Assembly: GCF_001677475.2 (NCBI RefSeq)
Contig: NZ_CP015229.1
DNA: 64,000 nt
From: Escherichia coli
Lineage (GTDB): Bacteria; Pseudomonadota; Gammaproteobacteria; Enterobacterales; Enterobacteriaceae
Strand: one strand, 5' to 3'
A program made the translations under genes and the position numbers. Below, piece after piece: positions 1-49,859 of the stretch. The notes under the pieces are model-generated. The model was not told where the DNA came from and searched no databases. It saw nothing but the letters and a program-made list of their open reading frames with translations. Positions within the stretch are counted from its first letter, which is position 1. Each line of letters starts with the position of its first letter.

Positions 1-1256
1 GGACGTCCGGCTGAATTAGGCGAGATGATCGGCGATTTTCTTCATTTGCTGGCGGATGGCGCGTTCTTTTCCGGGACTATTCCCCCGTGGCTGGCAGAAG
101 AAAATACGATCGCCAATATTCAGGGATTGATTGAGGAGCAGCGCAACGCGACGGGCATCGTGCCGGGGAGTCGCCATCTGGTCCTCGAGCGGTGCCGTGA
201 TGAAATTGGCGACTGGCGTATTATTTTGCACTCTCCCTATGGAAGACGGGTGCATGAACCCTGGGCGCTGGCGATTGCCGGGCGAATACATGCCCTATGG
301 GGCGCTGACGCGTCTGTGGTCGCCAGTGATGACGGCATTGTTGCGCGCATTCCTGACACTGATGGTAAATTGCCCGACGCCGCGATTTTTTTGTTTGAAC
401 CAGAAAAGTTGCTGCAAATTGTCCGCGAGGCGGTAGGCAGTTCGGCACTTTTCGCCGCCCGTTTTCGCGAATGCGCCGCGCGGGCATTATTAATGCCGGG
501 GCGCACGCCGGGCCATCGCACCCCGCTTTGGCAACAACGGCTGCGCGCCAGTCAGTTGCTGGAAATCGCTCAGGGATATCCGGATTTTCCGGTCATTCTC
601 GAAACCCTACGCGAATGTCTGCAAGATGTTTATGATCTTCCCGCACTGGAACGTTTGATGCGTCGCCTGAACGGTGGCGAAATTCAAATATCCGATGTAA
701 CGACTACTACGCCCTCGCCTTTCGCCACAAGTTTATTGTTCGGCTATGTCGCGGAATTTATGTACCAGAGCGACGCCCCGCTGGCAGAGCGCCGGGCATC
801 CGTACTGTCGCTGGACAGCGAGTTACTGCGCAATCTACTCGGACAGGTCGATCCGGGGGAATTACTCGACCCGCAGGTCATTCGCCAGGTGGAAGAAGAG
901 TTGCAACGACTGGCTCCTGGCAGAAGAGCGAAAGGTGAAGAAGGATTGTTCGACCTGCTGCGCGAACTGGGGCCAATGACCGTTGAAGACCTGGCGCAAC
1001 GGCATACAGGCAGCAGTGAAGAGATTACGTCGTATCTGGAAAATCTTCTTGCAGTAAAACGAATCTTCCCGACGATGATTAGCGGGCAGGAGCGTCTTGC
1101 CTGTATGGATGATGCCGCCAGGCTGCGCGATGCCCTCGGCGTACGACTACCAGAGTCACTGCCAGAGATTTATTTGCACCGAGTCAGTTACCCGCTTCGC
1201 GACCTCTTTCTGCGCTATCTCCGGGCTCATGCTCTGGTCACGTCTGAACAACTGGC
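1..1256 (+). pseudogene. lhr: lhr (ATP-dependent helicase Lhr), internal segment; 5' end lies upstream of the window, 3' side interrupted by an IS insertion
   Basis: Frame-1 ORF is continuous from position 1; the translation continues seamlessly into the 3667..5159 segment once the IS and one repeat copy are removed. After 1256 the frame runs into IS sequence and stops at 1431. Confidence 0.8.
1250..1256. repeat. Target-site duplication, left copy (AACTGGC; possibly 8 bp AACTGGCT)
   Basis: Identical AACTGGC(T) is found directly outside both ends of the element (1250-1256/7 and 3667-3673/4). Confidence 0.7.
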
Positions 1257-1304
1257 TATTAGACGTCAACTAGTTTTGCCGACTCGCGCCAACTATACTG
1301 GCCG
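1257..1304. repeat. Terminal inverted repeat of the IS (istB-proximal end)
   Basis: TATTAGACGTCAAC...CGCGCCAACTATACTGGCCG matches the reverse complement of 3618..3666 (TATGAGACGACAA...GGCGCCGATTATTCTGGCCGG), with shared motifs TAT.AGACG.CAA and GCGCC.A.TAT.CTGGCCG. Confidence 0.6.
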
Positions 1305-1321
1305 CACCCTTCAGGGCGACA

Positions 1322-2077
1322 TCAAGTCGCGCTTGTTACTGCCTTCGCTGTCTTTTTCCTGTAGCTTTCCCCTTTCAGTTCGAACATATATCCGTGATGG
1401 ATCAGCCTGTCTGCCGCAGCCACCGCCATAGTCTCATCCACGAAGATGCTGCCCCACATGCTGAACGGATGGTTACTGGTTATCACCAGGCTCCCACGTT
1501 CATAGCGATGCGCTATTAACTCGAACAGCACACCCGTTTCGGCACTATCGCGTTTGACATAGCCAAGATCATCCACCACTATCACCCGGTAGCGATCCAG
1601 TTTCAGTAGCAGCTCATTCAGTTTCAACTGAGCTCTGGCTTTACGTAGTTCCTGCAACAGCTCTCCTGCGCTGTAGAACCGGGCCCGGTAGCCCTGACCT
1701 ACTACGCCATCCACGATCGCTGCCGCCAGATGGCTTTTCCCCAACCCGCTGGCTCCGAACAGCAGAACGTTTTCTCCTGCATCAACCCAGTCTGTCGTTT
1801 CACAGAGTTGCCGGAACTGAGCTCCATTCAGTTCCGGCACCTGACTGAAGTCGTATTCGCTCAGCGTTTTGGCAACTGGCAACCGGGCCTCCTTTTTATA
1901 ACGACGCAGTTTTTCACTCTCGCGCCACAGGAGTTCTTCATTGCATAGCGTCAGAAGATAGCGCGATGGTGTCCAGCCTTCTGCCAGCGCTCGTTTTTCC
2001 AGAGCGTGCCATTCAGCTCCAACTCGTGTCAGGCGTAGTTTACGCAGGCTATGTTCAAGGTGATGGATATTGCTCAC
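1322..2077 (-). CDS. istB: IstB-like ATP-binding transposition helper protein (IS21 family)
   Basis: 251 aa ORF with Walker A motif GASGLGKSH and Walker B VIVVDDLGY; start overlaps the istA stop. Confidence 0.9.
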   Translation of the reverse strand: MSNIHHLEHSLRKLRLTRVGAEWHALEKRALAEGWTPSRYLLTLCNEELLWRESEKLRRYKKEARLPVAKTLSEYDFSQVPELNGAQFRQLCETTDWVDAGENVLLFGASGLGKSHLAAAIVDGVVGQGYRARFYSAGELLQELRKARAQLKLNELLLKLDRYRVIVVDDLGYVKRDSAETGVLFELIAHRYERGSLVITSNHPFSMWGSIFVDETMAVAAADRLIHHGYMFELKGESYRKKTAKAVTSAT

Positions 2078-3573
2078 TGCGAACCTCCCTTGCCACGCAG
2101 TAGTTGCTCATAACTGCTCAGGTTATGCTGTATCACATTGACTACCGGCAACGCCTTTTCTTTTATACCCAGGAAGCGCATCAGCCGGTGCAGATCCACG
2201 TTTCCCGGGGTATTCAGCATCTGCTCCATACCTTTTGCCACGACTGAGATATCGTCGTATCCTGCAGCCAGTTTCAGGGCATGTACCATCAGCCTTCCTG
2301 CCATATCGGGCTCCAGATGATTACATAAGCGACGCCACAGCCTCCGCCATTCATCGTCCGGCAGGATGTCATTTCTCAGCGTTGCATGGCAGAACGCACC
2401 GGGCTTTTTTGCCAGACTGTCGATCACATGTCGGAAGTCGATACGACGGGCCCGCGTCTTCCCTTTTTCTGGTCTGACGCGAGGGCAGCTCATGACCTCG
2501 CTGCTGCCAACGTAACAGCTCAGACGATCGTCCCATAACCTGACCCGTAACAGTTGACCTACAAGCCGGGAAGGTACGCTGTAGACGACGTGCTTCACAT
2601 TGATGGTACTGCTGCGACTAACCCTCACAGTCAGCTCATCATAGTCAGCACTGCGACGAAGCGGCAGCGGTTTCAGATGAAGACGTTCTTCCTTGACCAG
2701 ATCCTGATTGTTACGGTTGTGCCGCATAACCTGCTGAGTGATGAAGGCCTGATATTCTTCTATGGTGCTGAAGTCGTTACTGCCCCGCAGTATCAGCGCC
2801 TGACAGATACGCCTTTTCAGATGTCCGTGGGCACTTTCAACCGAGCCATTTTCGTGGCCCCGACCGGCATTATTGTGTACGCCCTGCATTCCGTAGTGCT
2901 GACAGAGAGTAGCATAACGCTCAGTCAGCTCGCGGCGTCCATCTTCGCCCTGTTGTTTCCATGCTGCCCTCAGGCTGTCCGTTTTATGTTCTACCGGCAC
3001 TCCGCCCAGTTGTCCGAGGGCTTCCTGCAGGCCTTCAGCCAGAGCAGAGAAGCTCTCACCACCCAGAACAACCCGCATCCAGCTCCAGTGGCTCCATTCC
3101 AGACGGAAGTGATACAACTTATGCGCCAACAACTTACCGGCGATGGTGACAACTACACCTTTCAGTTCAGTAAAGTCCGACAGGCCTCGCAGGCCGGGCT
3201 GATGTTGCTGGCGGAACATGACCTCCTGCTCTGTACCATACTGTAGTTTCCATTCGCGAACCCGCCGTTGCATTGTTCTTCGAAGGCTGTTGGGGTACTG
3301 GCCGGGATATTTATCCTGTAGCATCTCCAGTAGAGTTGTTGGTGTCAGAGCCGGCCTCTCTTTCAACAGAGGAACAAGCATGCTGTCCCACACAGCTTCC
3401 AGAGGATCTTTGCGTGTGCGCCAGTGCCGAACACTGTTTTTTGCCCACTCTCCTTTTTCGATCCGACGACCAGAACGGACTGAGATACCAGCCTTCATGG
3501 CCGAGATATGCTGAGTTATACCTTTCTTACGCTGAGTCATATAGTAACTGACCTGAGAAGTATTGAGCGTCAC
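2074..3573 (-). CDS. istA: IstA transposase (IS21 family), GTG start
   Basis: 499 aa ORF with N-terminal helix-turn-helix-like region and DDE-type integrase-like core; the istA-istB tandem is diagnostic for IS21-family elements. Confidence 0.9.
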   Translation of the reverse strand: MTLNTSQVSYYMTQRKKGITQHISAMKAGISVRSGRRIEKGEWAKNSVRHWRTRKDPLEAVWDSMLVPLLKERPALTPTTLLEMLQDKYPGQYPNSLRRTMQRRVREWKLQYGTEQEVMFRQQHQPGLRGLSDFTELKGVVVTIAGKLLAHKLYHFRLEWSHWSWMRVVLGGESFSALAEGLQEALGQLGGVPVEHKTDSLRAAWKQQGEDGRRELTERYATLCQHYGMQGVHNNAGRGHENGSVESAHGHLKRRICQALILRGSNDFSTIEEYQAFITQQVMRHNRNNQDLVKEERLHLKPLPLRRSADYDELTVRVSRSSTINVKHVVYSVPSRLVGQLLRVRLWDDRLSCYVGSSEVMSCPRVRPEKGKTRARRIDFRHVIDSLAKKPGAFCHATLRNDILPDDEWRRLWRRLCNHLEPDMAGRLMVHALKLAAGYDDISVVAKGMEQMLNTPGNVDLHRLMRFLGIKEKALPVVNVIQHNLSSYEQLLRGKGGSQ

Positions 3574-3617
3574 GCCATTTCCTGTTGGATCATGTAAATG
3601 ACACTCAGGTTACAAAA

Positions 3618-3666
3618 CCGGCCAGAATAATCGGCGCCAGGCGGACTGAGTTATTGTCGTCTCATA
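3618..3666. repeat. Terminal inverted repeat of the IS (istA-proximal end)
   Basis: Reverse complement aligns with 1257..1304. Confidence 0.6.
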
Positions 3667-3673
3667 AACTGGC
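3667..3673. repeat. Target-site duplication, right copy (AACTGGC)
   Basis: Direct repeat of 1250..1256 immediately after the IS end. Confidence 0.7.
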
Positions 3674-5159
3674 TCATGAGTTTAGTCTCGGTATTGCCAT
3701 TGTCGAAGAGCAACTTCAGCAACTGCGCGAACAAGGGCTGGTGATGAATCTGCAACAAGACATCTGGGTGAGCGATGAAGTATTTCGTCGTCTGCGTTTG
3801 CGCTCGCTGCATGCCGCCAGAGAAGCGACGCGTCCCGTTGCGGCCACGACCTATGCGCGATTGCTGCTGGAACGTCAGGGCGTATTACCCGCCACCGATG
3901 GTAGCCCGGCACTCTTTGCCTCAACATCGCCAGGCGTTTATGAGGGCGTGGATGGCGTGATGCGGGTGATCGAACAGCTTGCTGGCGTTGGTTTACCCGC
4001 CTCACTCTGGGAAAGCCAGATCCTGCCTGCCCGCGTACGCGACTATTCGCCAGAAATGCTCGATGAATTACTGGCAACCGGTGCGGTTATCTGGTCGGGG
4101 CAAAAAAAGCTGGGTGAAGATGACGGTCTGGTGGCACTGCATCTACAGGAATATGCCGCAGAATCGTTCACTCCCGCCGAAGCAGATCAGGCGAATCGTT
4201 CGGCGCTGCAGCAAGCGATAATCGCTGTTCTGGCTGACGGAGGAGCCTGGTTTGCACAACAAATCAGCCAACGGATACGCGATAAAATCGGCGAATCGGT
4301 TGATCCCTCGGCTCTGCAAGAGGCGTTATGGGCGCTGGTCTGGCAAGGCGTCATTACCAGCGACATTTGGGCACCGTTACGCGCCCTCACCCGTAGCAGT
4401 TTCAACGCACGCACCTCAACTCGCCGCAGTCACCGGACTCGTCGTGGGCGTCCTGTCTATGCACAACCCGTCTCGCCGCGGGTATTTTACAACACACCAA
4501 ATCTGGCTGGACGCTGGTCGTTATTGCAGGTGGAGCCACTAAACGATACCGAAAGGATGCTGGCGCTGGCGGAAAATATGCTCGACCGCTACGGCATCAT
4601 CAGTCGTCAGGCGGTGATAGCCGAAAATATCCCTGGTGGGTTTCCATCGATGCAAACGCTTTGTCGAAGTATGGAAGACTCCGGGCGAATTATGCGAGGT
4701 CGTTTTGTAGAAGGTCTGGGTGGCGCGCAATTCGCTGAACGTCTGACTATTGACCGATTGCGCGATCTGGCGACACAAGCCACGCAAACGCGCCACTATA
4801 CACCAGTGGCGCTCTCTGCCAACGATCCGGCTAATGCATGGGGAAATCTTCTGCCCTGGCCTGCACATCCGGCAACGCTGATACCAACGCGTCGGGCGGG
4901 TGCGCTGGTGGTCGTTTCTGGCGGCAAATTGTTACTCTATCTGGCGCAAGGTGGCAAAAAAATGCTGGTCTGGCAGGAAAAAGAGGAATTACTCGCTCCA
5001 GAGATTTTCCACGCGCTGACTACCGCACTGCGTCGCGAACCACGGCTGCGCTTTACGCTAACAGAAGTGAATGACCTACCGGTCCGGCAAACGCCGATGT
5101 TTACGCTGCTGCGTGAGGCGGGATTTTCAAGTTCGCCACAAGGGCTGGATTGGGGATAG
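3667..5159 (+). pseudogene. lhr: lhr, 3' segment (C-terminal roughly 497 codons) downstream of the IS insertion
   Basis: In-frame continuation of Lhr; the track ORF 3585..5159 begins at a TTG inside the IS end, so there is no native start codon. Confidence 0.8.
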
Positions 5160-5166
5160 AGAAAGG

Positions 5167-5196
5167 ACTGACGGATGCCCGTTCGCATCCGTCAGT
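5167..5196. terminator. Perfect 12-bp-stem hairpin between convergent lhr and grxD (putative bidirectional terminator)
   Basis: ACTGACGGATGC-ccgttc-GCATCCGTCAGT lies between the lhr stop (5159) and the grxD stop (5210); no strong U-tract on either side. Confidence 0.45.
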
Positions 5197-5209
5197 ATTG
5201 CAGGACGGA

Positions 5210-5557
5210 TTATTCAGCGTCCGGCTCTTCAGACTTGTATTTAGCGGCAGTTTCTTTGATCAGCTGCTGCAGTTCGCCACGCTGATACATTTCGATCACG
5301 ATATCACAACCGCCGACCAGCTCGCCGTCAACCCACAGTTGCGGGAAGGTCGGCCAGTTAGCATATTTCGGCAGTTCCGCACGAATGTCCGGATTCTGCA
5401 GGATATCAACATAGGCAAAACGTTCGCCACATGCGGCAAGCGCCTGGACTGCCTGGGCAGAGAAACCGCAGCTCGGCAGTTTCGGTGAACCTTTCATGTA
5501 CAGCAGGATCGGGTTTTCAGCAATCTGGCGTTGGATTTTTTCGATAGTGGTGCTCAT
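5210..5557 (-). CDS. grxD: Monothiol glutaredoxin Grx4
   Basis: 115 aa with CGFS active-site motif (PSCGFS); GAGGAA ribosome-binding site upstream. Confidence 0.95.
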   Translation of the reverse strand: MSTTIEKIQRQIAENPILLYMKGSPKLPSCGFSAQAVQALAACGERFAYVDILQNPDIRAELPKYANWPTFPQLWVDGELVGGCDIVIEMYQRGELQQLIKETAAKYKSEEPDAE

Positions 5558-5891
5558 TGTCTTGCTTCCTCAAACTTCTTTACGGCAGTAATCTGACATT
5601 GTAGCGGGTCAGTGCGGCATCGGGAAATAACATTTTCATCACGCTTTTGCTATTTTATCCCTTTGCTCTAATTGTTGCATTTCAAATATTCGTTTCTTCC
5701 CTGACGCAAGGCAAACTGGCGTATTTATGACCATTTTTAGCTTTCACTGCTGCATTTTTTTGCGCTCGCCGACGAAACGTATTTTTTAACAATAAAAGCT
5801 ATTAACTTTCTCTTCTTCTATGCATTAGAATTATCAAGTTTTGTAAATCAGACGCAGGCATGATAGACCTGCCTTAACAGAGGGACGCTCA

Positions 5892-6719
5892 GTGGCGCGG
5901 ATAAACCGTATTTCGATCACGCTCTGTGCTTTACTTTTTACCACCCTGCCTTTAACGCCTATGGCCCATGCTTCAAAGCAAGCCAGGGAGAGTTCTGCTA
6001 CTACTCATATCACCAAAAAAGCAGATAAAAAGAAAAGCACGGCAACCACCAAAAAGACCCAGAAAGCCAGCCAGAAAACAGCGAAAAAAGCCGCCAGTAA
6101 AAGTACGATCAAAAGCAAAACCGCTTCTTCCGTTAAAAAATCTTCCATTACCGCTTCTAAAAACGCCAAAACTCGCAGCAAACACGCCGTCAATAAAACG
6201 GCCTCAGCCAACTTTACCGAAAAGTGTACCAAACGTAAGGGCTATAAATCGCATTGTGTGAAAGTCAAAAATGCCGCGTCAGGAACCCTTGCCGACGCGC
6301 ACAAAGCGAAGGTGCAAAAAGCCACGAAAGTGGCAATGAATAAACTGATGCAGCAAATTGGTAAGCCATATCGTTGGGGCGGCAGCTCACCGCGTACCGG
6401 TTTTGATTGCAGCGGCCTGGTTTATTACGCTTATAAAGATTTGGTGAAAATTCGTATTCCGCGTACGGCGAATGAAATGTATCACCTGCGAGATGCAGCG
6501 CCAATCGAACGTAGTGAACTGAAAAACGGCGACCTGGTCTTTTTCCGTACTCAGGGACGCGGTACAGCCGATCATGTCGGCGTATATGTCGGCAACGGCA
6601 AATTTATTCAGTCACCGCGTACGGGTCAGGAAATTCAAATCACTTCTCTCAGTGAAGACTACTGGCAGCGCCACTATGTTGGCGCTCGCCGGGTAATGAC
6701 CCCAAAAACACTTCGCTAA
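5892..6719 (+). CDS. mepH: NlpC/P60-family peptidoglycan DD-endopeptidase MepH (YdhO); GTG start, start position uncertain
   Basis: Signal peptide, Lys/Ala/Ser/Thr-rich low-complexity linker, C-terminal NlpC/P60 domain (DCSGLV ... H). Confidence 0.9.
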   Translation: MARINRISITLCALLFTTLPLTPMAHASKQARESSATTHITKKADKKKSTATTKKTQKASQKTAKKAASKSTIKSKTASSVKKSSITASKNAKTRSKHAVNKTASANFTEKCTKRKGYKSHCVKVKNAASGTLADAHKAKVQKATKVAMNKLMQQIGKPYRWGGSSPRTGFDCSGLVYYAYKDLVKIRIPRTANEMYHLRDAAPIERSELKNGDLVFFRTQGRGTADHVGVYVGNGKFIQSPRTGQEIQITSLSEDYWQRHYVGARRVMTPKTLR

Positions 6720-6846
6720 AACTTTACCCTGTTGTTACGGCAACAGGGTAAGTTCATCTTTTGTCTCACCTTTTAATTTGCTACCCTATCCATACGCACA
6801 ATAAGGCTATTGTACGTATGCAAATTAATAATAAAGGAGAGTAGCA

Positions 6847-7428
6847 ATGTCATTCGAATTACCTGCACTACCATATGCTAAAGATGCTCTGGCACCGCAC
6901 ATTTCTGCAGAAACCATCGAGTATCACTACGGCAAGCATCATCAGACTTATGTCACTAACCTGAACAACCTGATCAAAGGTACCGCGTTTGAAGGTAAAT
7001 CACTGGAAGAGATTATTCGCAGCTCTGAAGGTGGCGTATTCAACAACGCAGCTCAGGTCTGGAACCATACTTTCTACTGGAACTGCCTGGCACCGAACGC
7101 CGGTGGCGAACCGACTGGAAAAGTCGCTGAAGCTATCGCCGCATCTTTTGGCAGCTTTGCCGATTTCAAAGCTCAGTTTACTGATGCAGCGATCAAAAAC
7201 TTTGGTTCTGGCTGGACCTGGCTGGTGAAAAACAGCGATGGCAAACTGGCTATCGTTTCAACCTCTAACGCGGGTACTCCACTGACCACCGATGCGACTC
7301 CGCTGCTGACCGTTGATGTCTGGGAACACGCTTATTACATCGACTATCGCAATGCACGTCCTGGCTATCTGGAGCACTTCTGGGCTCTGGTGAACTGGGA
7401 GTTCGTAGCGAAAAATCTCGCTGCATAA
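6847..7428 (+). CDS. sodB: Iron superoxide dismutase
   Basis: 193 aa Fe/Mn SOD family; strong ribosome-binding site AGGAGAG upstream. Confidence 0.97.
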
Positions 7429-7537
7429 TAACTGATGGCAAATGCAACATTGCCTGATGCGCTTTGCTCCATGCCAACACGGATGAGTCGTTAACACCGC
7501 ATCCGGCAAGATAAATCGCACGTTGTCAGCAACTGTA

Positions 7538-7569
7538 ACGCAGAAGGTTATCCTTCTGCGTTTTTGTTT
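7538..7569 (+). terminator. Rho-independent terminator after sodB
   Basis: ACGCAGAAGG-ttat-CCTTCTGCGT followed by TTTTTGTTT; lies between sodB and convergent ydhP. Confidence 0.8.
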
Positions 7570-7571
7570 AA

Positions 7572-8741
7572 TTAGCTGTTGGCAACGCAAACTGTTTCAG
7601 GTTGTTTTCTGGCTGACATAAACACCAGCAATAATGCCAGTCCCGCGACAATCGCCCCCATCACCGGCACAAAGCTGTATCCCAGCCCAGCGGAAATTAC
7701 CGCACCACCAGCAGCTGCTCCCAGCGCATTTCCAAGATTAAAGGCACCAATATTGACTGATGAAGACAGACCTGGCGCTTCACTGGCGACACGCATCACG
7801 CGCATCTGTAACGGCGGTACGACCGCAAAGGTTGCAGCGCCCCACACCACCATGCTAATAGCTGCGCCGAACTCATTGCGGGCCAGGAACGGGATTGCCA
7901 GCATAATCACCATCAGCAGCAACAAAAAGCCTTTCAACGTGCCGTTAACTGAACGATCTGCCAGTTTGCCGCCGAGATAGTTACCGATAGAGAATCCGAC
8001 ACCAATCAGCACCAGCATTGCCGTGACGAACACCGGCGTTGCGTGGGTAATGCTTTGCAGTACCGGAGAGATATAGGTGTAGAGGGTAAACATTGCACCA
8101 GCTCCCAGTACCGTCGTCAGCAATGCAGACAGCACCTGCGGACGCATTAATACCGCCAGCTCTTTTTTCACTTCAGGTCGCGCCCCTGCTCCACCTTTAG
8201 GTAATGAGAAGAACAGACTTACCATTGAAATCACGCCCAGCCCCGCCGTTGCCAGAAATGACATCCGCCAGCCGATGGTTTCGCCCAACCAGGTCGCTGC
8301 CGGAACGCCACCGATATTTGCCAGGGTTAACCCCATAAACATAGTGGCAACTGCGCTGGCCTGTTTATGTTTTGGCACCACGCTTGCGGCCACAACTGAA
8401 CCCAAACCAAAAAATGCTCCGTGATTCAGGCTGGTCAAAATGCGTGAAAGCATGAGAGTCATATAATCCGGCGCGATGGCGGAAAGTACGTTGCCGAGCG
8501 TGAAAATCGCCATCAGGAAAATCAACGCACTGCGGCGAGCACGATGAGAAAGTAGAAGCGTCATCAGCGGCGCGCCAACCATTACGCCAACTGCATAGGC
8601 ACTGATTAACATTCCGGCAGCGGGAATCGAGACATCCACACCGCGCGCAATGACGGGCAATAAGCCCATTGGCGAGAACTCCGTTGTCCCGATACCAAAC
8701 GCGCCAATCGCCAGCGCCAGCAACGGATAGTTAATTTTCAT
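7572..8741 (-). CDS. ydhP: MFS transporter YdhP
   Basis: 389 aa hydrophobic multi-span protein of the major facilitator superfamily. Confidence 0.93.
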   Translation of the reverse strand: MKINYPLLALAIGAFGIGTTEFSPMGLLPVIARGVDVSIPAAGMLISAYAVGVMVGAPLMTLLLSHRARRSALIFLMAIFTLGNVLSAIAPDYMTLMLSRILTSLNHGAFFGLGSVVAASVVPKHKQASAVATMFMGLTLANIGGVPAATWLGETIGWRMSFLATAGLGVISMVSLFFSLPKGGAGARPEVKKELAVLMRPQVLSALLTTVLGAGAMFTLYTYISPVLQSITHATPVFVTAMLVLIGVGFSIGNYLGGKLADRSVNGTLKGFLLLLMVIMLAIPFLARNEFGAAISMVVWGAATFAVVPPLQMRVMRVASEAPGLSSSVNIGAFNLGNALGAAAGGAVISAGLGYSFVPVMGAIVAGLALLLVFMSARKQPETVCVANS

Positions 8742-8906
8742 GCCTTATCTCCACCTCTTCGCGTCATTACGCGATATTCATTAAAGTGGCGAAAGCATGA
8801 CAGCAATCACAAAAAAATGAAAATAACAAAAAGAGAAAACACTTTTGCCATTTTGCTAACAAACAGGAAAGAGAGGCGAGGGAGAACGCGCTCCCTCGAG
8901 AGGAAA

Positions 8907-8996
8907 TCAGTGCAGCGCGGCAGTCAAACCCACGGCCACGATCAAACCGAGGACGATAATCGTTGTTACCAGTGAAAATTTAAGGTCGGTGCTCAT
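8907..8996 (-). CDS. ynhF: Small membrane protein YnhF (29 aa)
   Basis: ATG...TGA encoding MSTDLKFSLVTTIIVLGLIVAVGLTAALH, a single transmembrane helix; not present in the supplied ORF track because it is too short. Confidence 0.75.
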   Translation of the reverse strand: MSTDLKFSLVTTIIVLGLIVAVGLTAALH

Positions 8997-9234
8997 CAAG
9001 TTTTCTCCTTTTTTATTACCACACAAAAAGTGATATTACGCATTTTTACACACTGTGATGAAAAAATCTCCCGTCATTTATAATGATAAGTGTTTTTACC
9101 ACTTCCCCTTTTCGTCAAGATCGGCCAAAATTCCACGCTTACACTATTTGCGTACTGGCCATTGACCCCTTCCTGACGCTCCGTGTCGTTTTTCCGGCGT
9201 ACCGCAACACTTTTGTTGTGCGTAAGGTGTGTAA

Positions 9235-9250
9235 AGGCAAACGTTTACCT
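9235..9250. promoter_or_regulatory. PurR operator (PUR box) in the purR leader
   Basis: AGGCAAACGTTTACCT matches the 16-bp PUR box palindrome (ACGCAAACGTTTGCGT type). Confidence 0.7.
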
Positions 9251-9294
9251 TGCGATTTTGCAGGAGCTGAAGTTAGGGTCTGGAGTGAAATGGA

Positions 9295-22528: not shown

Positions 22529-23188
22529 TCAGGGGTTCTGAAACTGCTCTACCTCGAACCATTCGCATAAGCCATACGCCTTGCCATAGGTCATAAATCG
22601 CTCGCTAAACAAGTACAACACCGCCGTCGATGACTCCACCTGCCGTATATCAGCATATTCAGGTGCAATATCCATCGCGGCGATCGCGGCTTCGATCTGC
22701 GCTTCCTGGAAGTAATATGGCGCTTGCAACAGCATGGCGACTTTGTAAGGACGAGGATACGTCTGGCACTCAAAACGAACGGCGTGTGCAATGGCGCGAC
22801 AAATGTCCTGCTCCACAACTTGCAAAGACATCGCCGCGTAGTTTTCACTCATGGCCTGCGTTGAGTAATAGTAATCATCCTGGCTTCCCGTCATACACGC
22901 GATATCCGCGTAGTCTCCGTTCTGCTTAATGTTTTCCAGCAAAACTGACAGTTCCTCTTCTGCAACCGAATAGGGCGGCGAGAGAAACACGGCGCGCGCC
23001 ACCAGCTGCCCAGCCGCAGAATGCTGGCGAATGAACTCTGCTAGGATTTCAGCAGGTTCTTGTTCTGTGATGTCTTCACTTACCGTATCAACGGGGTGAC
23101 GCATCCCCTGCAACCATTGCCGCTTCGCCTCGTCAATTTCGCTGACTTCCGCTAACGGCAAGACATCCTGATGGTTCATCTCACCCAT
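22529..23188 (-). CDS. ydhW: YdhW, uncharacterised protein
   Basis: About 215-219 aa ORF; start ambiguous between the first and fourth codon. Confidence 0.85.
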   Translation of the reverse strand: MGEMNHQDVLPLAEVSEIDEAKRQWLQGMRHPVDTVSEDITEQEPAEILAEFIRQHSAAGQLVARAVFLSPPYSVAEEELSVLLENIKQNGDYADIACMTGSQDDYYYSTQAMSENYAAMSLQVVEQDICRAIAHAVRFECQTYPRPYKVAMLLQAPYYFQEAQIEAAIAAMDIAPEYADIRQVESSTAVLYLFSERFMTYGKAYGLCEWFEVEQFQNP

Positions 23189-26958: not shown

Positions 26959-27163
26959 ACTTTGGACTGTAGAACTCAACGACTCAAAAACAGGCACTCA
27001 CGTTGGGCTGAGACACAAGCACACATTCCTCTGCACGCTTTTTCGATGTCACCTATCCTTAGAGCGAGGCACCACCACTTTCGTAATACCGGATTCGCTT
27101 TCCGGCAGTGCGCCCAGAAAGCAAGTTTCTCCCATCCTTCTCAACTTAAAGACTAAGACTGTC

Positions 27164-28576
27164 ATGAAAAAGACCAAAATTGTTTGCACCATCGGACCGA
27201 AAACCGAATCTGAAGAGATGTTAGCTAAAATGCTGGACGCTGGCATGAACGTTATGCGTCTGAACTTCTCTCATGGTGACTATGCAGAACACGGTCAGCG
27301 CATTCAGAATCTGCGCAACGTGATGAGCAAAACTGGTAAAACCGCCGCGATCCTGCTTGATACCAAAGGTCCGGAAATCCGCACCATGAAACTGGAAGGC
27401 GGTAACGACGTTTCTCTGAAAGCGGGTCAGACCTTTACTTTCACCACTGATAAATCTGTTATCGGCAACAGCGAAATGGTTGCGGTAACGTATGAAGGTT
27501 TCACTGCTGACCTGTCTGTTGGCAACACCGTACTGGTTGACGATGGTCTGATCGGTATGGAAGTTACCGCCATTGAAGGTAACAAAGTTATCTGTAAAGT
27601 GCTGAACAACGGCGACCTGGGCGAAAACAAAGGTGTGAACCTGCCTGGCGTTTCCATTGCCCTGCCAGCACTGGCTGAAAAAGACAAACAGGACCTGATC
27701 TTTGGTTGCGAACAAGGCGTAGACTTTGTTGCTGCTTCCTTTATTCGTAAGCGTTCTGACGTTATCGAAATCCGTGAGCACCTGAAAGCGCACGGCGGCG
27801 AAAATATCCACATCATCTCCAAAATCGAAAACCAGGAAGGCCTCAACAACTTCGACGAAATCCTCGAAGCCTCTGACGGCATCATGGTTGCGCGTGGCGA
27901 CCTGGGTGTAGAAATCCCGGTAGAAGAAGTTATCTTCGCCCAGAAGATGATGATCGAAAAATGTATCCGTGCACGTAAAGTCGTTATCACTGCGACCCAG
28001 ATGCTGGATTCCATGATCAAAAACCCACGCCCGACTCGCGCAGAAGCCGGTGACGTTGCAAACGCCATCCTCGACGGTACTGACGCAGTGATGCTGTCTG
28101 GTGAGTCCGCAAAAGGTAAATACCCGCTGGAAGCGGTTTCTATCATGGCGACCATCTGCGAACGTACCGACCGCGTGATGAACAGCCGCCTCGAGTTCAA
28201 CAATGACAACCGTAAACTGCGCATTACCGAAGCGGTATGCCGTGGTGCCGTTGAAACTGCTGAAAAACTGGATGCTCCGCTGATCGTGGTTGCTACCCAG
28301 GGCGGTAAATCTGCTCGCGCAGTACGTAAATACTTCCCGGATGCCACCATCCTGGCACTGACCACCAACGAAAAAACGGCTCATCAGTTGGTACTGAGCA
28401 AAGGCGTTGTGCCGCAGCTGGTTAAAGAGATCACTTCTACTGATGATTTCTACCGTCTGGGTAAAGAACTGGCTCTGCAGAGCGGTCTGGCACACAAAGG
28501 TGACGTTGTAGTTATGGTTTCTGGTGCACTGGTACCGAGCGGCACTACTAACACCGCATCTGTTCACGTCCTGTAA
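27164..28576 (+). CDS. pykF: Pyruvate kinase I
   Basis: 470 aa from [15 protein letters not shown]; the track ORF carries an upstream in-frame extension that is not part of the protein. Confidence 0.97.
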
Positions 28577-28606
28577 TATTGCTTTTGTGAATTAATTTGT
28601 ATATCG

Positions 28607-28631
28607 AAGCGCCCTGATGGGCGCTTTTTTT
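28607..28631 (+). terminator. Rho-independent terminator after pykF
   Basis: AAGCGCCC-tgat-GGGCGCTT followed by TTTTTTT. Confidence 0.9.
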
Positions 28632-28812
28632 ATTTAATCGATAACCAGAAGCAATAAAAAATCAAATCGGATTTCACTATATAATCTCACTTTATCTAAG
28701 ATGAATCCGATGGAAGCATCCTGTTTTCTCTCAATTTTTTTATCTAAAACCCAGCGTTCGATGCTTCTTTGAGCGAACGATCAAAAATAAGTGCCTTCCC
28801 ATCAAAAAAATA

Positions 28813-28842
28813 TTCTCAACATAAAAAACTTTGTGTAATACT
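28813..28842 (+). promoter_or_regulatory. lpp promoter
   Basis: TTCTCA, 17 bp spacer, TAATACT, in an A-rich upstream region. Confidence 0.65.
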
Positions 28843-28874
28843 TGTAACGCTACATGGAGATTAACTCAATCTAG

Positions 28875-29123
<249 letters not shown>

Positions 29124-29140
29124 TAGTACCTGTGAAGTGA

Positions 29141-29171
29141 AAAATGGCGCACATTGTGCGCCATTTTTTTT
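29141..29171 (+). terminator. Rho-independent terminator after lpp
   Basis: AATGGCGCAC-att-GTGCGCCATT followed by TTTTTTT. Confidence 0.9.
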
Positions 29172-29186
29172 GCCTGCTATTTACCG

Positions 29187-30191
29187 CTACTGCGTCGCGC
29201 GTAACATATTCCCTTGCTCTGTTTCCCCATTCTGCGCTGACTCTACTGAAGGCGCATTGCTGGCTGCGGGAGTTGCTCCACTGCTCACCGCAACCGGATA
29301 CCCTGCCCGACGATACAACGCTTTATCGACTAATTTCTGATCTACACCCTTATTGTCTTTAAATTGCGTAAAGCCTGCTGGCAGTGTGTATGGCATTGTC
29401 TGAACGTTCTGCTGTTCTTCTGCCGATAGTGGTCGATGTACTTCAACATAACGCATCCCGTTAGGCTCCACGGAATATTTCACCGGTTCGTTGATCACTT
29501 TCACCGGCGTTCCCGTCCGCACGCTGGAGAATAAGGCTTTAATATCCGGTGCATTCATGCGAATACACCCTGAACTGACGCGCAAACCGACGCTGTCCGG
29601 CGCACTGGTGCCGTGAATGAGGTATTCGCCATTACCATGCGCGAGGCGCAGTGCGTAACGTCCTAGTGGGTTATTTGGCCCGGCAGGAACGACTGGCGGT
29701 AATTTAATGCCACGCTCAAGCGAACGCTGACGAATGCCTGCCGTAGGCGTCCAGGTTGGGTTAGGGATTTTCTGCCCCACACGCGTTTCCATCACTGGCG
29801 TTTCCAGCCCCTGCAAACCAATACCTATCGGATAGACCTGCACGATATTTTCTCCCGGCGGATAATAATAAAGGCGCAGCTCTGCCAGGTTAACGATAAT
29901 CCCCTGACGCGGCGCATCAGGTAATAACAGTTGCGAAGGAATAGTTATCGTCGTACCAGGTTTTGGCACCGGGGCGATAGTGTTATTGGCTTCAAGGATC
30001 AACATTGCCGCAGTATCAAAACGTCGGGCGATGGCCTGAAGGTTTTTATCCCCTTCCTGCACCATATACGTTTGATTTTGCCCAACCAGTCGGCTTCCGG
30101 TTGGTGGTAGCGGATAATCAACCGCCCAGGCAGCCTGGATGGCGCTAAAAGCGCCGATAAGCGTGAGTGTAAGCAAAGACGCGCGTTTCAT
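29187..30191 (-). CDS. ldtE: L,D-transpeptidase LdtE (YnhG)
   Basis: 334 aa with signal peptide, LysM-like region and YkuD catalytic motif (HGT ... SSGCIRM). Confidence 0.93.
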
Positions 30192-30339
30192 TGTAAACCT
30201 CCTGTATTTGCCGGAGACTCACGCTGAAACGTCGGATGGCGCTTATGTTCACCTGAAACCGAAACACTCCTGTGCAGGTCAGTGTAAACATTGACCATCC
30301 GGCAATGTGAGCCAACCGGATGAAAGCTGTCCCTTTAGT

Positions 30340-30756
30340 TTAGCTAAGTGCAGCGGCTTTGGCGCGAATTGCGCGAATCATCGCTTCCAGACCTTGTGAA
30401 CGAGATGGGGTGAGATGTTGGGTGAGCGCCATTTTTTCAAACCACGGACGCACATCGAAATTGACAATATCCTGCGGCGTCATCTGATCGTAGAGAATAA
30501 AGACGACCGCAATAAGCCCTTTCACAATCGCCGCATCGCTGTCGCCCTGCAATTCAATAATTCCCTGCGCATTCTGGCGCATGACAATCCACACCTGACT
30601 CTGGCAGCCCTGAATGCTATTTTGTGGGCTTCGGTCTTCGTCGCGTAATTCTGGCAGACGCTGGCCCAGCTCAATAATGTAGAGATATTTCTCTTCCCAG
30701 TTGGCACAGCGTAAAAAATTACGCAGCAATTTTTCTTTATCCGGCAATAAAGCCAT
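30340..30756 (-). CDS. sufE: Cysteine desulfuration protein SufE
   Basis: 138 aa ORF matching SufE. Confidence 0.95.
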
Positions 30757-30768
30757 AGTGCCTCCCTG

Positions 30769-31989
30769 TTATCCCAGCAGACGGTGAATACGTTGCAATC
30801 CGGTCACCAGACGATCCACTTCTTCATGGGTGTTATACATGGCCAGCGACGCCCGACACATCGCAGGGACGTTGTAATAGGCCATTAATGGCATAGCGCA
30901 GTGATGTCCGGTACGCACAGCAATGCCGTAATTATCGAGAAAACTGCCAACATCATAGGCGTGGTGTTTACCGAGATTAAAAGCAATAACGCCAAGCCTG
31001 TTTTGTGGGCCATAGAGAGTGAGATCCGGTACAGATTCCAGCTGTGATAGCGCGTAGTGCATCAGATTCTGTTCATACTCGGATATGTTATTAAGCCCCA
31101 GCGCCGAAACATACTCCAGCGCCGCGCCAAGACCAATGATGCCCCCGGTATTGGGTGTACCGGCTTCAAACCGCCATGGTGCTTTGGTCCAGGTAGTGCC
31201 TTCACTCAGGCTGACGGTGGCGATCATAGAACCGCCCCCTTCCCACGGCGGCATCTCCTGCAACAAGGCTTCTTTCACATAAAGAATGCCAATTCCGGTG
31301 GGGCCATACAGTTTATGCCCGGAAAACACGTAAAAATCGCAATCCAGCGCCTGAACATCCACCGGATGATGCATCACCGCCTGAGCGCCATCCACCATCA
31401 CTTTTGCGCCATGCTGGTGCGCAAGCGTGATCATTTCCGCCAGCGGATTTTCTGTTCCCAGCACGTTGGAGACATGAGTAATTGCCAGCAGGCGAGTTTT
31501 CTCATCAAACAGCGTAGGCAGCGTCTCCAGTTGCAGCGTACCGTCGGGGTTGAGAGGGATCACACGCAGCTCTGCGCCAACGCGTGCGCAAAGCATCTGC
31601 CAGGGAACAATGTTAGCGTGGTGCTCCATCTGACTTATGATGATGTTATCGCCCGCCCGCACGTTGCTGTTGCCCCAGCTATTGGCGACCAGATTGATCC
31701 CTTCCGTCGTGCCGCGGACGAACACCAGCTCTTCCGCCGAACGGGCATTAATAAACAGCGATGCCCGCTTGCGCACGTTCTCCATTTTCTCGGTCGCCTG
31801 GGCGCTTAAGGTATGAATACCGCGATGCACCGCCGCGTAGCCATGACGATAAAACTCGGCCTCGGCGTCAATCACCTGGCTCGGTTTCTGCGCACTGGCG
31901 GCGCTATCGAGATAAGCCAGCGGCAAACCGTTTACCTCACGCGAAAGCACCGGAAAGTCGGCCCGCACTTTGTCGACGGAAAAAGTCAT
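30769..31989 (-). CDS. sufS: Cysteine desulfurase SufS
   Basis: 406 aa PLP-dependent enzyme; active-site Cys in HHCAMP. Confidence 0.97.
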
Positions 31990-33257
31990 CTTGCACCTCC
32001 TGGCAGCCGTTGACCGATTCGGGCCAGCACCTGCTGTTTAAGCCCCTCATCACGCAGTGCTTCCGTCAGTTCGGCAGCAAAGGCGTAAATGATCATCTGC
32101 TGGGCATCCTGCTGATTGATCCCGCGCGAGCGCAGATAGAACATCTGTTCATCATCAATACGCCCCACCGTCGCGCCGTGGCTGCATTTCACATCATCTG
32201 CATAGATTTCCAGCTGCGGTTTCGTATCCACTTCCGCCAGTTTGCCCATCAGCAGATTATTGTTGGTCATCTGACCATCCGTTTTGATGGCGTGCTGCGC
32301 GACGTTGATCAAACCGTTAAATACCGCGCGGCCTTTGTCGCTGACGATAGTTTTGTGCAACTGTCGGCTGTTACAAAAACCTTTATTGTGTTCCAGCCAG
32401 GTACGGGTATCACACACCTCGTTTTTCACCGGCATCGCCAGGCTATTGATCCGCAACATGCTGTTTTCGCCATTGAGTTGCGTACTGGTGTTGTGTCGTA
32501 ACACTGCGCCACCCAGCAGGAAACTGTGGCTAAATGCGGTGGCATCGTCAGCCAGCAACAAATCGTTATGGGCAAAGTGGTGACTGAGCGGGTTTTCAAA
32601 CGCCAGCTTGATATGCTGCAAGTGGGCGTTCGCTGCGACGTTGATAGTGAACCGTGCCCCGGTAAAATGACGAGCATCATTAAGGCTGATAAAATGTTCA
32701 ATCACCGTTGCTTCGGCACCTTCCGCCAGATCCAGATGATGTCGGTAATGGGCAGTGTTCACCTCTTCACCTGCCACGCCCTGGGTGATATGCATTAACA
32801 GCAATGGCTTTGCCGGTCGTTGACCGCGCTTCACGGCGATATGCGTCACGCTTTGTGCCAGGCTTTCCGTCAAATGCAGAAACACTTCCGCCTGAATAGC
32901 GTCGGGTAACCCCTGACGGTCATCATTAATGCTCACTTCATATCCGCTGCCTTCAGTTGCATCGCTCAGCGCAGGCATGTAACGTCCATCGACAAACACC
33001 AGCCGTACGGCGTCTAACGTTAACGCTAAGGCATCACGCTGCTGTGGGGATATCTCCCCCGCAATGCTGACAAACTGGCTATTGGCCAGCCCTTCCAGCG
33101 GCGTATATTTCCAGTTTTCATGTTTACGTGTCGGCAGTCCGGTACGCAGCAATTGTTGTAAATGCTGTTGTGCTTGCGGTGAGCGTTTTGTCCCTTCAGC
33201 TTCAAACAAGTGATGCCACTGTTGCAGCGCGTTACTGCTGTTCGGTAAGCCAGCCAT
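31986..33257 (-). CDS. sufD: Fe-S cluster assembly protein SufD
   Basis: 423 aa; 4-bp overlap with sufS. Confidence 0.95.
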
Positions 33258-33978
33258 AACCCTGCTCCTCCAGTTGTTTGACCAACGTGAAATCGCCGGA
33301 TTTCACAATTCGTCCCTGATACAGCACGTGGACGTAATCAGGCTTGATGTAGTCGAGAATGCGTTGGTAGTGCGTAACAATGATGAATGAACGCTTGCCG
33401 TCACGCAGCGAGTTCACGCCATCGGCAACCACTTTTAATGCGTCAATATCCAGCCCGGAGTCCGACTCATCAAGAATGCATAACTCCGGTTCCAGCACCG
33501 CCATTTGCAAAATATCGTTGCGCTTTTTCTCGCCGCCAGAAAAACCAACGTTTACCGAACGGGTTAATAAATCCTCCGGCATCTTCAGGAGAGCGATTTT
33601 CTCTTCCATCAAATCCTGAAAATCAAAGCGGTCGAGCGTTTCCTGCCCGCGATAGCTGCGCACCGCATTAAGTGCCGTTTGCAGGAAAAACTGGTTACTG
33701 ACGCCGGGAATTTCCACCGGATACTGGAAGGCCATAAAGATACCTTCACCTGCACGATCTTCCGGCGACAGCGCAAGCAAATCTTTGCCTTTGAACTCAA
33801 CCGTGCCGCCCGTCACTTCATAATCTTCTCGCCCGGCAAGCGTTGCCGATAAGGTACTTTTGCCCGAACCGTTTGGCCCCATAATGGCGTGAACTTCGCC
33901 GGGACGAACGTCGAGGCTTAATCCACGCAGGATAGCTTTATCTTCCACGCTGACGTGTAAATCTTTAATACTTAACAT
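33232..33978 (-). CDS. sufC: Fe-S cluster assembly ATPase SufC
   Basis: 248 aa ABC-type ATPase (GPNGSGKST); 26-bp overlap with sufD. Confidence 0.97.
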   Translation of the reverse strand: MLSIKDLHVSVEDKAILRGLSLDVRPGEVHAIMGPNGSGKSTLSATLAGREDYEVTGGTVEFKGKDLLALSPEDRAGEGIFMAFQYPVEIPGVSNQFFLQTALNAVRSYRGQETLDRFDFQDLMEEKIALLKMPEDLLTRSVNVGFSGGEKKRNDILQMAVLEPELCILDESDSGLDIDALKVVADGVNSLRDGKRSFIIVTHYQRILDYIKPDYVHVLYQGRIVKSGDFTLVKQLEEQGYGWLTEQQ

Positions 33979-33987
33979 GTTTATTCC

Positions 33988-35475
33988 TTATCCGACGCTG
34001 TGTTCAAGACTGATGGCGAGGAGTTTTTGTGCTTCAACGGCAAATTCCAGCGGCAGTTCTGAGAACACGTCTTTGCAGAAACCGTTAACAATCATCGAGA
34101 TGGCATCTTCTTCGCTGATCCCGCGTTGCAGGCAGTAAAACAGTTGATCTTCACCAATACGTGATGTTGTTGCCTCGTGCTCCAGTTGTGCGCTGTTATT
34201 GCGACATTCGACATACGGGAAGGTATGCGCCCCACAATTAGCGCCAATCAGCATTGAGTCGCACTGAGTGAAATTGCGCGCATTGGTTGCCGTCGGCATG
34301 ATTTTCACTAAGCCGCGATAACTGTTCTGACTATGTCCGGCAGAGATCCCTTTCGAGATAATGGTCGATTTGGTGTTTTTACCAATGTGGATCATCTTGG
34401 TGCCGGTATCCGCCTGCTGATGACCGCTGGTCAGTGCCACCGAGTAGAACTCACCGATAGAGTTATCGCCGCGCAGAATGCAGCTTGGGTATTTCCAGGT
34501 AATCGCTGAACCGGTTTCTGATTGCGTCCATGACATCTTGCTGTTTTCGCCTTCGCACAACGCACGCTTGGTGACGAAGTTGAGAATACCACCGGTGTTG
34601 TTATCGCCAGGGAACCAGTTTTGTACCGTGGAATATTTCACCTCGGCGTTTTTATGGATGATGACTTCCACCACCGCCGCGTGTAACTGATAGCTGTCAC
34701 GCACCGGAGCGGAACAGCCTTCGATGTAGCTGACGTAGCTGTCTTCGTCGGCCACCAGAATGGTGCGCTCAAACTGCCCGGTTTTTTCTGCGTTAATGCG
34801 AAAATAGGTGGAAAGTTCCATCGGGCAGCGCACGCCTTTAGGCACATAAATAAACGTACCGTCAGAGGCTACCGCCGCATTAAGCGCGGCAAAGAAGTTG
34901 TCATTCCCCGGCACCACGGTGCCGAGATATTTACGCACCAGTTCCGGGTGATCGTGGATCGCCTCACCAAAGGAACAGAAAATAATTCCCTGCTCCGCCA
35001 GTTTTTCGCGATAAGTAGTGGCAACCGAAACAGAGTCGAAAATGGCATCCACCGCCACCTCTTTGCCTTCCCGCACGGGAACGCCCAACTGCTCAAACGC
35101 CGCCTCCACCTCTTTACTTAAAAAGGCGTTCGCGCCAGTTTGCTGCACCGCGCCAGGTTCAGACGCGCAAGTGTCGTCACAATTACCGCACGATGGTGCC
35201 GAATAGTAGCTGTAATCCTGATAATTCAGCTTGTCGTAGTGCGCTTTCAGCCAGTGCGGCTCTTCCATCTCCAGCCATGCGCGATAGGCATTGAGACGAA
35301 ACTCCAGCATCCACTCCGGCTCATTACGCTTCGCCGAAATTGCGCGCACCACCTCTTCGTTTATCCCCTTTGCCAGCTCATCGGTGGCTAACTGGGTGAA
35401 GAATCCTTCTTTATAATTCAGCGGGCCGCCGGTCCAGGTTTTGACATCGTCAGTTGCTTCAGTATTACGAGACAT
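33988..35475 (-). CDS. sufB: Fe-S cluster scaffold SufB (start chosen at [11 protein letters not shown])
   Basis: 495 aa; the track ORF has a 13-codon upstream extension to 35514. Confidence 0.95.
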
Positions 35476-47056: not shown

Positions 47057-48652
47057 ATGAAACCTGTAAAACCACCTCGTATTAATGGACGAGTGCCGGT
47101 CCTGTCGGCACAGGAAGCGGTGAATTATATTCCCGACGAAGCAACACTTTGTGTGTTAGGCGCTGGCGGCGGTATTCTGGAAGCCACCACGTTAATTACT
47201 GCTCTTGCTGATAAATATAAACAGACTCAAACGCCACGTAATTTATCGATTATTAGTCCAACAGGGCTTGGCGATCGCGCCGACCGTGGTATTAGTCCTC
47301 TGGCGCAAGAAGGTCTGGTGAAATGGGCATTATGTGGTCACTGGGGACAATCGCCGCGTATTTCTGAACTCGCAGAACAAAATAAAATTATTGCTTATAA
47401 CTACCCACAAGGTGTACTTACACAAACCTTACGCGCCGCCGCAGCCCACCAGCCTGGTATTATTAGTGATATTGGCATCGGGACATTTGTCGATCCACGC
47501 CAGCAAGGCGGCAAACTGAATGAAGTCACTAAAGAAGAGCTGATTAAACTGGTCGAGTTTGATAACAAAGAATATCTCTATTACAAAGCGATTGCGCCAG
47601 ATATCGCCTTCATTCGCGCTACCACCTGCGACAGTGAAGGCTACGCCACTTTTGAAGATGAGGTGATGTATCTCGACGCATTGGTTATTGCCCAGGCGGT
47701 GCACAATAACGGCGGTATTGTGATGATGCAGGTGCAGAAAATGGTTAAGAAAGCCACGCTGCATCCTAAATCTGTCCGTATTCCGGGTTATCTGGTGGAT
47801 ATTGTGGTGGTCGATCCGGATCAAAGCCAACTGTATGGCGGTGCGCCGGTTAACCGCTTTATTTCTGGTGACTTCACCCTTGATGACAGCACCAAACTTA
47901 GCCTGCCCCTAAACCAACGTAAATTAGTTGCGCGGCGTGCATTATTCGAAATGCGTAAAGGCGCGGTGGGGAATGTCGGCGTCGGTATTGCTGACGGCAT
48001 TGGCCTGGTCGCCCGGGAAGAAGGTTGTGCTGATGACTTTATTCTGACGGTAGAAACAGGTCCGATTGGCGGAATTACTTCACAGGGTATCGCCTTTGGC
48101 GCGAACGTGAATACCCGCGCCATTCTGGATATGACGTCCCAGTTTGATTTTTATCACGGTGGTGGTCTGGATGTTTGTTATTTGAGTTTTGCTGAAGTCG
48201 ACCAACACGGTAACGTCGGCGTGCATAAATTCAATGGAAAAATCATGGGTACCGGTGGATTTATTGATATCAGTGCCACCTCGAAGAAAATTATTTTCTG
48301 CGGCACGTTAACTGCGGGCAGTTTAAAAACAGAAATTGCCGATGGCAAATTGCATATCGTCCAGGAAGGACGGGTAAATAAATTTATTCGGGAACTACCG
48401 GAAATTACTTTTAGCGGAAAAATCGCTCTCGAGCGAGGGCTAGATGTTCGTTATATCACTGAGCGCGCAGTATTCACGCTGAAAGAAGACGGACTGCATT
48501 TAATCGAAATCGCTCCAGGCGTCGATTTACAAAAAGATATTCTCGACAAAATGGATTTCACCCCAGTGATTTCGCCAGAACTCAAACTGATGGACGAAAG
48601 ATTATTTATCGATGCGGCGATGGGTTTTGTCCTGCCTGAAGCGGCTCATTAA
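47057..48652 (+). CDS. ydiF: Acyl-CoA:acetate CoA-transferase (fused alpha/beta subunits) YdiF
   Basis: 531 aa family-I CoA-transferase. Confidence 0.93.
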   Translation: MKPVKPPRINGRVPVLSAQEAVNYIPDEATLCVLGAGGGILEATTLITALADKYKQTQTPRNLSIISPTGLGDRADRGISPLAQEGLVKWALCGHWGQSPRISELAEQNKIIAYNYPQGVLTQTLRAAAAHQPGIISDIGIGTFVDPRQQGGKLNEVTKEELIKLVEFDNKEYLYYKAIAPDIAFIRATTCDSEGYATFEDEVMYLDALVIAQAVHNNGGIVMMQVQKMVKKATLHPKSVRIPGYLVDIVVVDPDQSQLYGGAPVNRFISGDFTLDDSTKLSLPLNQRKLVARRALFEMRKGAVGNVGVGIADGIGLVAREEGCADDFILTVETGPIGGITSQGIAFGANVNTRAILDMTSQFDFYHGGGLDVCYLSFAEVDQHGNVGVHKFNGKIMGTGGFIDISATSKKIIFCGTLTAGSLKTEIADGKLHIVQEGRVNKFIRELPEITFSGKIALERGLDVRYITERAVFTLKEDGLHLIEIAPGVDLQKDILDKMDFTPVISPELKLMDERLFIDAAMGFVLPEAAH

Positions 48653-48665
48653 CAGGAGTATAATG

Positions 48666-49817: not shown

Positions 49818-49859
49818 TCTGCAGGCGGCGCAGCTTCTTAACAAACTGCGCCGCCAGAT

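Follow-up and report, generated by a model that had tools for sequence, protein, structure and literature searches.

An ISEc10 copy within the lhr gene of Escherichia coli: ends, identity and predicted consequences for the gene

In a 64,000-nucleotide stretch of Escherichia coli DNA (NCBI RefSeq assembly GCF_001677475.2, contig NZ_CP015229.1; this whole stretch is called the window below), the DNA-repair helicase gene lhr is split by a segment that carries two genes of its own, istA and istB. The locus raises the question of what this segment is, how it came to lie in lhr, and what it leaves of the gene. We consider it highly probable (about 95%) that one intact copy of the insertion sequence ISEc10, probably still competent to transpose, entered lhr by ordinary IS21-family transposition. 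Such a knockout of a gene by a mobile element that was already known is commonplace and not a new kind of feature; only the place of insertion is new.

The element, its ends and its proteins

The complete ISEc10 copy occupies positions 1257-3666 on the minus strand of the window; it is 2,410 bp long, and its G+C content is 53%, as compared with 50% in the flanks. It lies between two copies of AACTGGC, the left one at 1250-1256 (K-12 1732211-1732217) and the right one at 3667-3673. Window positions 1-1257 correspond to K-12 1730962-1732218 and positions 3667-64000 to K-12 1732211-1792531 (identity 98.0-98.2%); the 8-bp overlap of the two flank matches on K-12 is a coincidence of the eighth base. 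A preliminary description of this DNA had given the direct repeat as AACTGGC(T). The seven-base repeat stands, whereas the eighth base does not: position 1257 is already part of the element, since every other copy also starts with TAT, and the duplication is therefore 7 bp and not 8 bp long. All of the approximately 25 independent copies that we compared begin with TATTAGACG and end with CGTCTCATA, and their flanks differ directly outside these ends. Deleting 1257-3673, i.e., the element together with one repeat, yields one open lhr frame that reads ...TSEQLAHEFSLGIAIVEEQ..., as in K-12, and in the K-12 alignment the intact gene joins at AACTGGC, in agreement with what the preliminary description had proposed.

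Target-site duplications of the IS21 family measure 4-8 bp. Accordingly short duplications were found in 21 copies of ISEc10, with lengths of 5 bp (4 copies), 6 bp (14 copies, the most frequent class) or 7 bp (3 copies, that in lhr included), so that the duplication in lhr is of a minority length for this element. Full-length copies at three loci (designated L007/L008, L029 and L033) have no flanking duplication, as could result if copies had later recombined with one another or if adjacent DNA had been deleted; the L007 and L008 copies also have a frameshifted istB and adjoin a different IS21-like element. No common motif was found among the 20-odd ISEc10 target sites. Target mimicry was considered and rejected: there is a likeness between CGTCTGAAC (1241-1249) in the lhr flank and the element end CGTCT(C/A)ATA, and some BLAST matches continued beyond the element by up to 23 nt, but these are weak extensions due to chance, selected among about 1,100 places.

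The longest inverted repeat of the region pairs 1257-1304, the istB-distal terminal repeat (IRR), with 3619-3666, the istA-proximal one (IRL), and the outer termini of both, TATTAGACG and CGTCTCATA respectively, are constant across copies. The arms are identical at 34 of 48 positions (binomial P ~3e-11 for 34 or more matches in an anchored, ungapped 48-nt comparison), and the identity falls into two conserved blocks at positions 1-14 and 23-49 of the repeat. ISEc10 thus has the imperfect terminal inverted repeats (48 nt) that are expected of the IS21 family. They had been recognised in the preliminary description, correctly except for the start of the 3' arm, which is 3619 rather than 3618. 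The IRR carries TTGACG facing outward, 7 nt from the tip. The IS21 prototype has several repeated IstA-binding motifs in each of its ends and TG...CA termini, the latter being usual for the family. ISEc10 departs from this: every copy compared has TAT...ATA termini, and a search of the terminal 130 bp for further internal repeats (14-mers, up to 3 mismatches) found none. Since not all members of the family show this feature, these departures do not outweigh the protein evidence for IS21 membership.

This protein evidence comes from two genes on the minus strand. The first, istA (3573-2074), encodes a 499-aa transposase from a GTG start located six bases downstream of AGGAAA; the second, istB (2077-1322), encodes a 251-aa AAA+ helper ATPase, and its GTG start, preceded by GGAGG, overlaps the istA stop as GTGA. 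IstA scores 226.4 bits against the NCBIfam model NF033546 (IS21 transposase, with an N-terminal helix-turn-helix and a DDE core; curated cut-off 160 bits), residues 12-304 aligning with model positions 2-293/294, and IstB scores 266.7 bits against NF038214 (IS21 helper ATPase; curated cut-off 200 bits). IstB is additionally matched by Pfam IstB_IS21 (1e-61) and, over residues 11-243, by the IstB structure of IS5376 (PDB 8q3w, E = 4e-45); it has a Walker A motif, GASGLGKSH, at residues 108-116 and a Walker B motif, VVDDLG, at 167-172. The sole Pfam match of IstA is Mu-transpos_C_2 (residues 311-366). The two reading frames with their starts, lengths, strand and Walker A motif, as well as the family assignment, had been put forward in the preliminary description and are borne out here. 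Judged by its protein sequence, IstA is a diverged IS21 member, and the family of the element is IS21.

A further question is whether the istAB unit belongs to a composite transposon or island that is larger and extends beyond 1257-3666. At other sites, ISEc10 frequently lies nested between further insertion sequences (IS66, IS3 and ISEc12, for example), which would speak for such an arrangement. However, both flanks of the present copy are lhr and abut exactly on K-12 sequence, the 64-kb window contains no second or partial ISEc10 copy, and its other 60 kb are collinear with K-12 at 98.1% identity with no indel longer than 12 bp (14 indels, all intergenic or in-frame). We regard a composite structure as extremely improbable. 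Neither of the two results that would have contradicted the preliminary description, a larger composite element or an intact lhr that joins elsewhere than at AACTGGC, was obtained; its further statement that the element is the only lineage-specific DNA in the window also agrees with the K-12 comparison.

Identity, variants and mobility of ISEc10

The name of the element, which had been left undetermined, was provided by BLASTN of 1257-3666, as the full-length matches are annotated as ISEc10. Among 5,426 complete E. coli genomes, full-length copies were found by megablast of the 2,410 bp in 525, and RefSeq labels their products as transposase and helper ATPase IstB of the "IS21-like element ISEc10 family". 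The copy in CFT073 (NC_004431.1 1234406-1236815) is 98.5% identical to the one in lhr, with 36 substitutions and zero indels; IstA is identical at 495 of 499 residues (99.2%; WP_000174402.1) and IstB at 250 of 251 (WP_000065240.1), the residues in which the lhr copy differs being T114, Q123, T222 and I481 of IstA and H9 of IstB. On these sequence comparisons the element is ISEc10, which is already catalogued, and the name rests on the RefSeq-annotated CFT073 copy. One ISEc10 insertion has been given as 2,530 bp long (PMC8764528), whereas the mobile unit was 2,410 bp in every context measured here.

The variant found in lhr is uncommon: only 8 of 951 matching records from the complete genomes are at least 99% identical to it, the nearest (99.9%) being those of RM9088 (crow) and of OkiPb01695 (bovine), whose chromosome carries at least 12 copies. 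In a larger collection of assemblies, its exact IstA protein was indexed in 145 blocks, and at six of nine places among the matches listed for this protein the whole 2,410 bp showed zero nucleotide differences. The sites of these six copies, located in different assemblies on prophages, plasmids and chromosomes, are unrelated, and each has its own duplication. The exact 27-nt ISEc10 end was present at 14 loci in a scan of species-representative genomes, none of them the source of the window; it occurs in genomes of Lelliottia, Kosakonia, Klebsiella, Raoultella and Tenebrionibacter. Exact ends were seen in assemblies labelled as Martelella alba, an alphaproteobacterium, and as a Collinsella (actinobacterial) metagenome-assembled genome (loci L019 and L020, and L028, respectively), and one of these copies is complete (2,410 bp) and flanked by a 6-bp duplication; contamination or mis-binning is a more likely source of these occurrences than true hosts.

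The 36 substitutions relative to CFT073 could be taken to mean that the lhr copy is an immobile relic, whole but inactivated by the residues in which its IstA and IstB differ and fixed in its lineage. Against this, the identical nucleotide sequence occupies the six other sites mentioned above, the exact IstA protein recurs in the 145 blocks, and the perfect duplication in lhr together with the private distribution of the insertion (see below) points to a recent event; hence, we find a relic very unlikely. That zero-difference copies occupy six other sites argues instead for present-day mobility of exactly this variant. Moreover, de novo ISEc10 insertions beside lpp have been selected in CFT073 in the laboratory (PMC7482066).

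The way in which such an element would move is established knowledge for the IS21 family. IstA, a DDE transposase, would bind and synapse both terminal repeats and cleave the ends, while ATP-bound oligomers of IstB would assemble on the target, bend it and deliver it to IstA. Contact between IstA and IstB would then trigger integration and ATP hydrolysis, and the staggered cuts in the target, once repaired, would leave the flanking duplication (7 bp at lhr). Since IstB aligns with the IstB of IS5376, the target-capture ATPase mechanism may be transferred to ISEc10. With regard to expression of istA, the sequence TTGACG-16/18-GACAAT, directed into the gene, arises when both ends are abutted over a spacer of 1-3 bp, and this putative promoter would parallel the junction promoter of IS21; no natural head-to-tail ISEc10 tandems or circle junctions were found in the 5,426 genomes.

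The interrupted gene, its distribution and its surroundings

The element breaks lhr in codon 1044 of 1538, its own first T completing this Ala codon, and K-12 Lhr residues 626-1044 and 1045-1538 fall on opposite sides of it. The 5' fragment within the window (1-1256, plus strand) encodes residues 626-1044 and matches the K-12 protein at 98.8% (tblastn, window 1-1257); the 3' fragment (3667-5159, plus strand) comprises the rest of codon 1042 to codon 1538 and the stop, including winged-helix modules WH3 and WH4 and Asp1536 (in GLDWG, directly before the stop). From the 5' side, the frame continues into the element for 57 foreign codons until a stop at 1429-1431 (open reading frame 25-1431). The break is situated between the Pfam domains WH2_Lhr and WH3_Lhr, inside the C-terminal winged-helix/uracil-glycosylase domain. 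It was reported that the core of Lhr consists of residues 1-897 and the C-terminal domain of residues 898-1538, and that Asp1536 is essential for the uracil-DNA glycosylase activity, which is independent of the helicase (PMC10953399). The source strain would thus make at most Lhr 1-1044, i.e., the helicase core (1-897) with the first part of the C-terminal domain, extended by 57 element-encoded residues, and winged-helix modules 3 and 4 as well as Asp1536 would be cut off from the helicase core. A polar effect on genes downstream of lhr is not expected, because grxD, which lies after lhr, is transcribed convergently with it.

The lhr/ISEc10 junction was found in none of the 5,426 complete genomes and in no metagenome contig searched, and for this reason the insertion looks like a private, recent event. 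The reconstructed empty site, a 400-bp megablast query composed of window positions 1057-1256 and 3674-3873, is continuous in 4,380 of the complete genomes. About 1,040 genomes gave no megablast match to this lhr segment, yet match the downstream 8 kb, and one weak match aligns its first 112 nt only; this suggests a divergent allele class of the lhr C-terminal domain in the unmatched genomes. The source lineage itself seems to have no close relative among the complete genomes, since the best identities of its backbone are 99.0% (3667-11666; E. coli 042) and 98.7% (27000-35000).

These observations bear on whether the disruption is adaptive, i.e., a selected loss of the C-terminal glycosylase/oligomerisation domain, or a neutral insertion. 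The cut spares the helicase core (1-897), the helicase and glycosylase activities are separable (PMC10953399), and one other E. coli assembly, GCA_048157185.1, has an lhr that is split within the C-terminal domain. There (locus L045, 651-5268), the gene is divided into reading frames of 1,191 and 365 aa by an independent frameshift. On the other hand, the allele interrupted by ISEc10 occurs in no other genome or metagenome searched, and the continuity of the target site in 4,380 genomes gives no signal of recurrence or of a hotspot. Selection for the loss is, in our opinion, very unlikely, as is the relic. A wider proposal, that a currently spreading ISEc10 sub-variant is expanding in this lineage without close complete-genome relatives and that the lhr insertion is an early step of insertion-driven gene loss, is somewhat less improbable, though still unlikely; it would make the product a natural separation-of-function Lhr, with the helicase core kept and the uracil-glycosylase/oligomerisation domain lost.

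Several points weigh against a transposition-competent copy that arrived by ordinary transposition and truncated Lhr in the manner described. The DDE triad of IstA, with D133 (SDFTEL), D199 (KTDSL), E246 (VESAHG) and K253 at +7, is a set of candidates picked by inspection, because IstA has no Pfam rve match and a sequence search of PDB chains with it returned nothing even at E = 10. Inside the element, promoter-like sites for istA are as frequent as in shuffled sequence (2 versus 2.1 expected), that is, no istA promoter stands out there. The anatomy, identity, junction and uniqueness of the insertion are shown directly, whereas the activity of the lhr copy and the phenotype are inferred; the truncated Lhr may be unstable or inactive. 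It is also formally possible that the junction is an assembly artefact, against which the perfect duplication speaks strongly. We retain the view that one intact ISEc10 copy inserted into lhr by the usual IS21-family route.

With the exception of fadK, all K-12 genes that lie wholly within the window are full-length and without internal stops; in fadK, codon 559 of 566 is TAG instead of CAG (56121-56123), and FadK would lose its last 8 residues. Relative to K-12, mepH (6066-6077) and ydhW (23069-23080) each contain a 12-bp in-frame insertion; the resulting MepH variant of 275 aa is widespread among public assemblies (12,151 index blocks), and YdhW is only 93% identical to the K-12 protein, its exact variant being absent from a large gene-position index. 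An exact-protein search with the 3' lhr reading frame likewise gave no record. The sodB-ydhP intergenic region (7470-7495) has a cluster of small deletions, 18 bp in total. Substitutions are dense in ydiJ (38000-40000, 81 differences per 2 kb) and ydiF/ydiO (48000-50000, 61), as compared with a window average of about 35, and these stretches may be recombination patches. An Rfam match to the antisense RNA HPnc0260 (18006-18168, minus strand) overlaps the two tRNA-Val genes as well as the beginning of ydhR, and the other Rfam matches (STnc550, RprA, rydB and two tRNAs) lie at the sites of the corresponding K-12 genes.

Comparison with known IS21 systems

Beyond annotation, the insertion has little significance: the element is named, its ends are fixed (TATTAGACG...CGTCTCATA, 2,410 bp), a duplication spectrum was obtained, and lhr is flagged as a pseudogene in the source strain. 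For research on Lhr, it offers a ready-made truncation after residue 1044, in which the glycosylase part is gone and the helicase core is kept. For insertion-sequence epidemiology, the presence of the exact sequence at many unrelated sites suggests that this variant is currently active in Enterobacteriaceae.

The IS21 prototype, from plasmid R68.45 of Pseudomonas aeruginosa, is 2,131 bp long and encodes an IstA of 390 aa and an IstB of 265 aa. ISEc10 shares with it the istA-istB tandem with translational coupling, the helper AAA+ ATPase, terminal repeats that are long and imperfect, duplications that are short and vary in length and, at its abutted ends, a promoter-like sequence resembling the promoter of the IS21 tandem junction. 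As to the differences, its IstA exceeds that of IS21 by about 110 aa and has diverged too far to be matched by Pfam rve, its termini are TAT...ATA instead of TG...CA, and no extra repeats were seen in the terminal 130 bp. The comparison with IS5376 of Geobacillus stearothermophilus (PDB 5bq5, 8q3w and 8q4d) divides along the two proteins: residues 11-243 of IstB align with its counterpart (E = 4e-45), whereas the ISEc10 IstA has no sequence match to any PDB chain at E = 10. The ISEc10 of CFT073 equals the copy described here in length (2,410 bp), termini, lengths of the reading frames and their overlap; what sets the copy in lhr apart is that it belongs to a rarer sub-variant and occupies a new insertion site.

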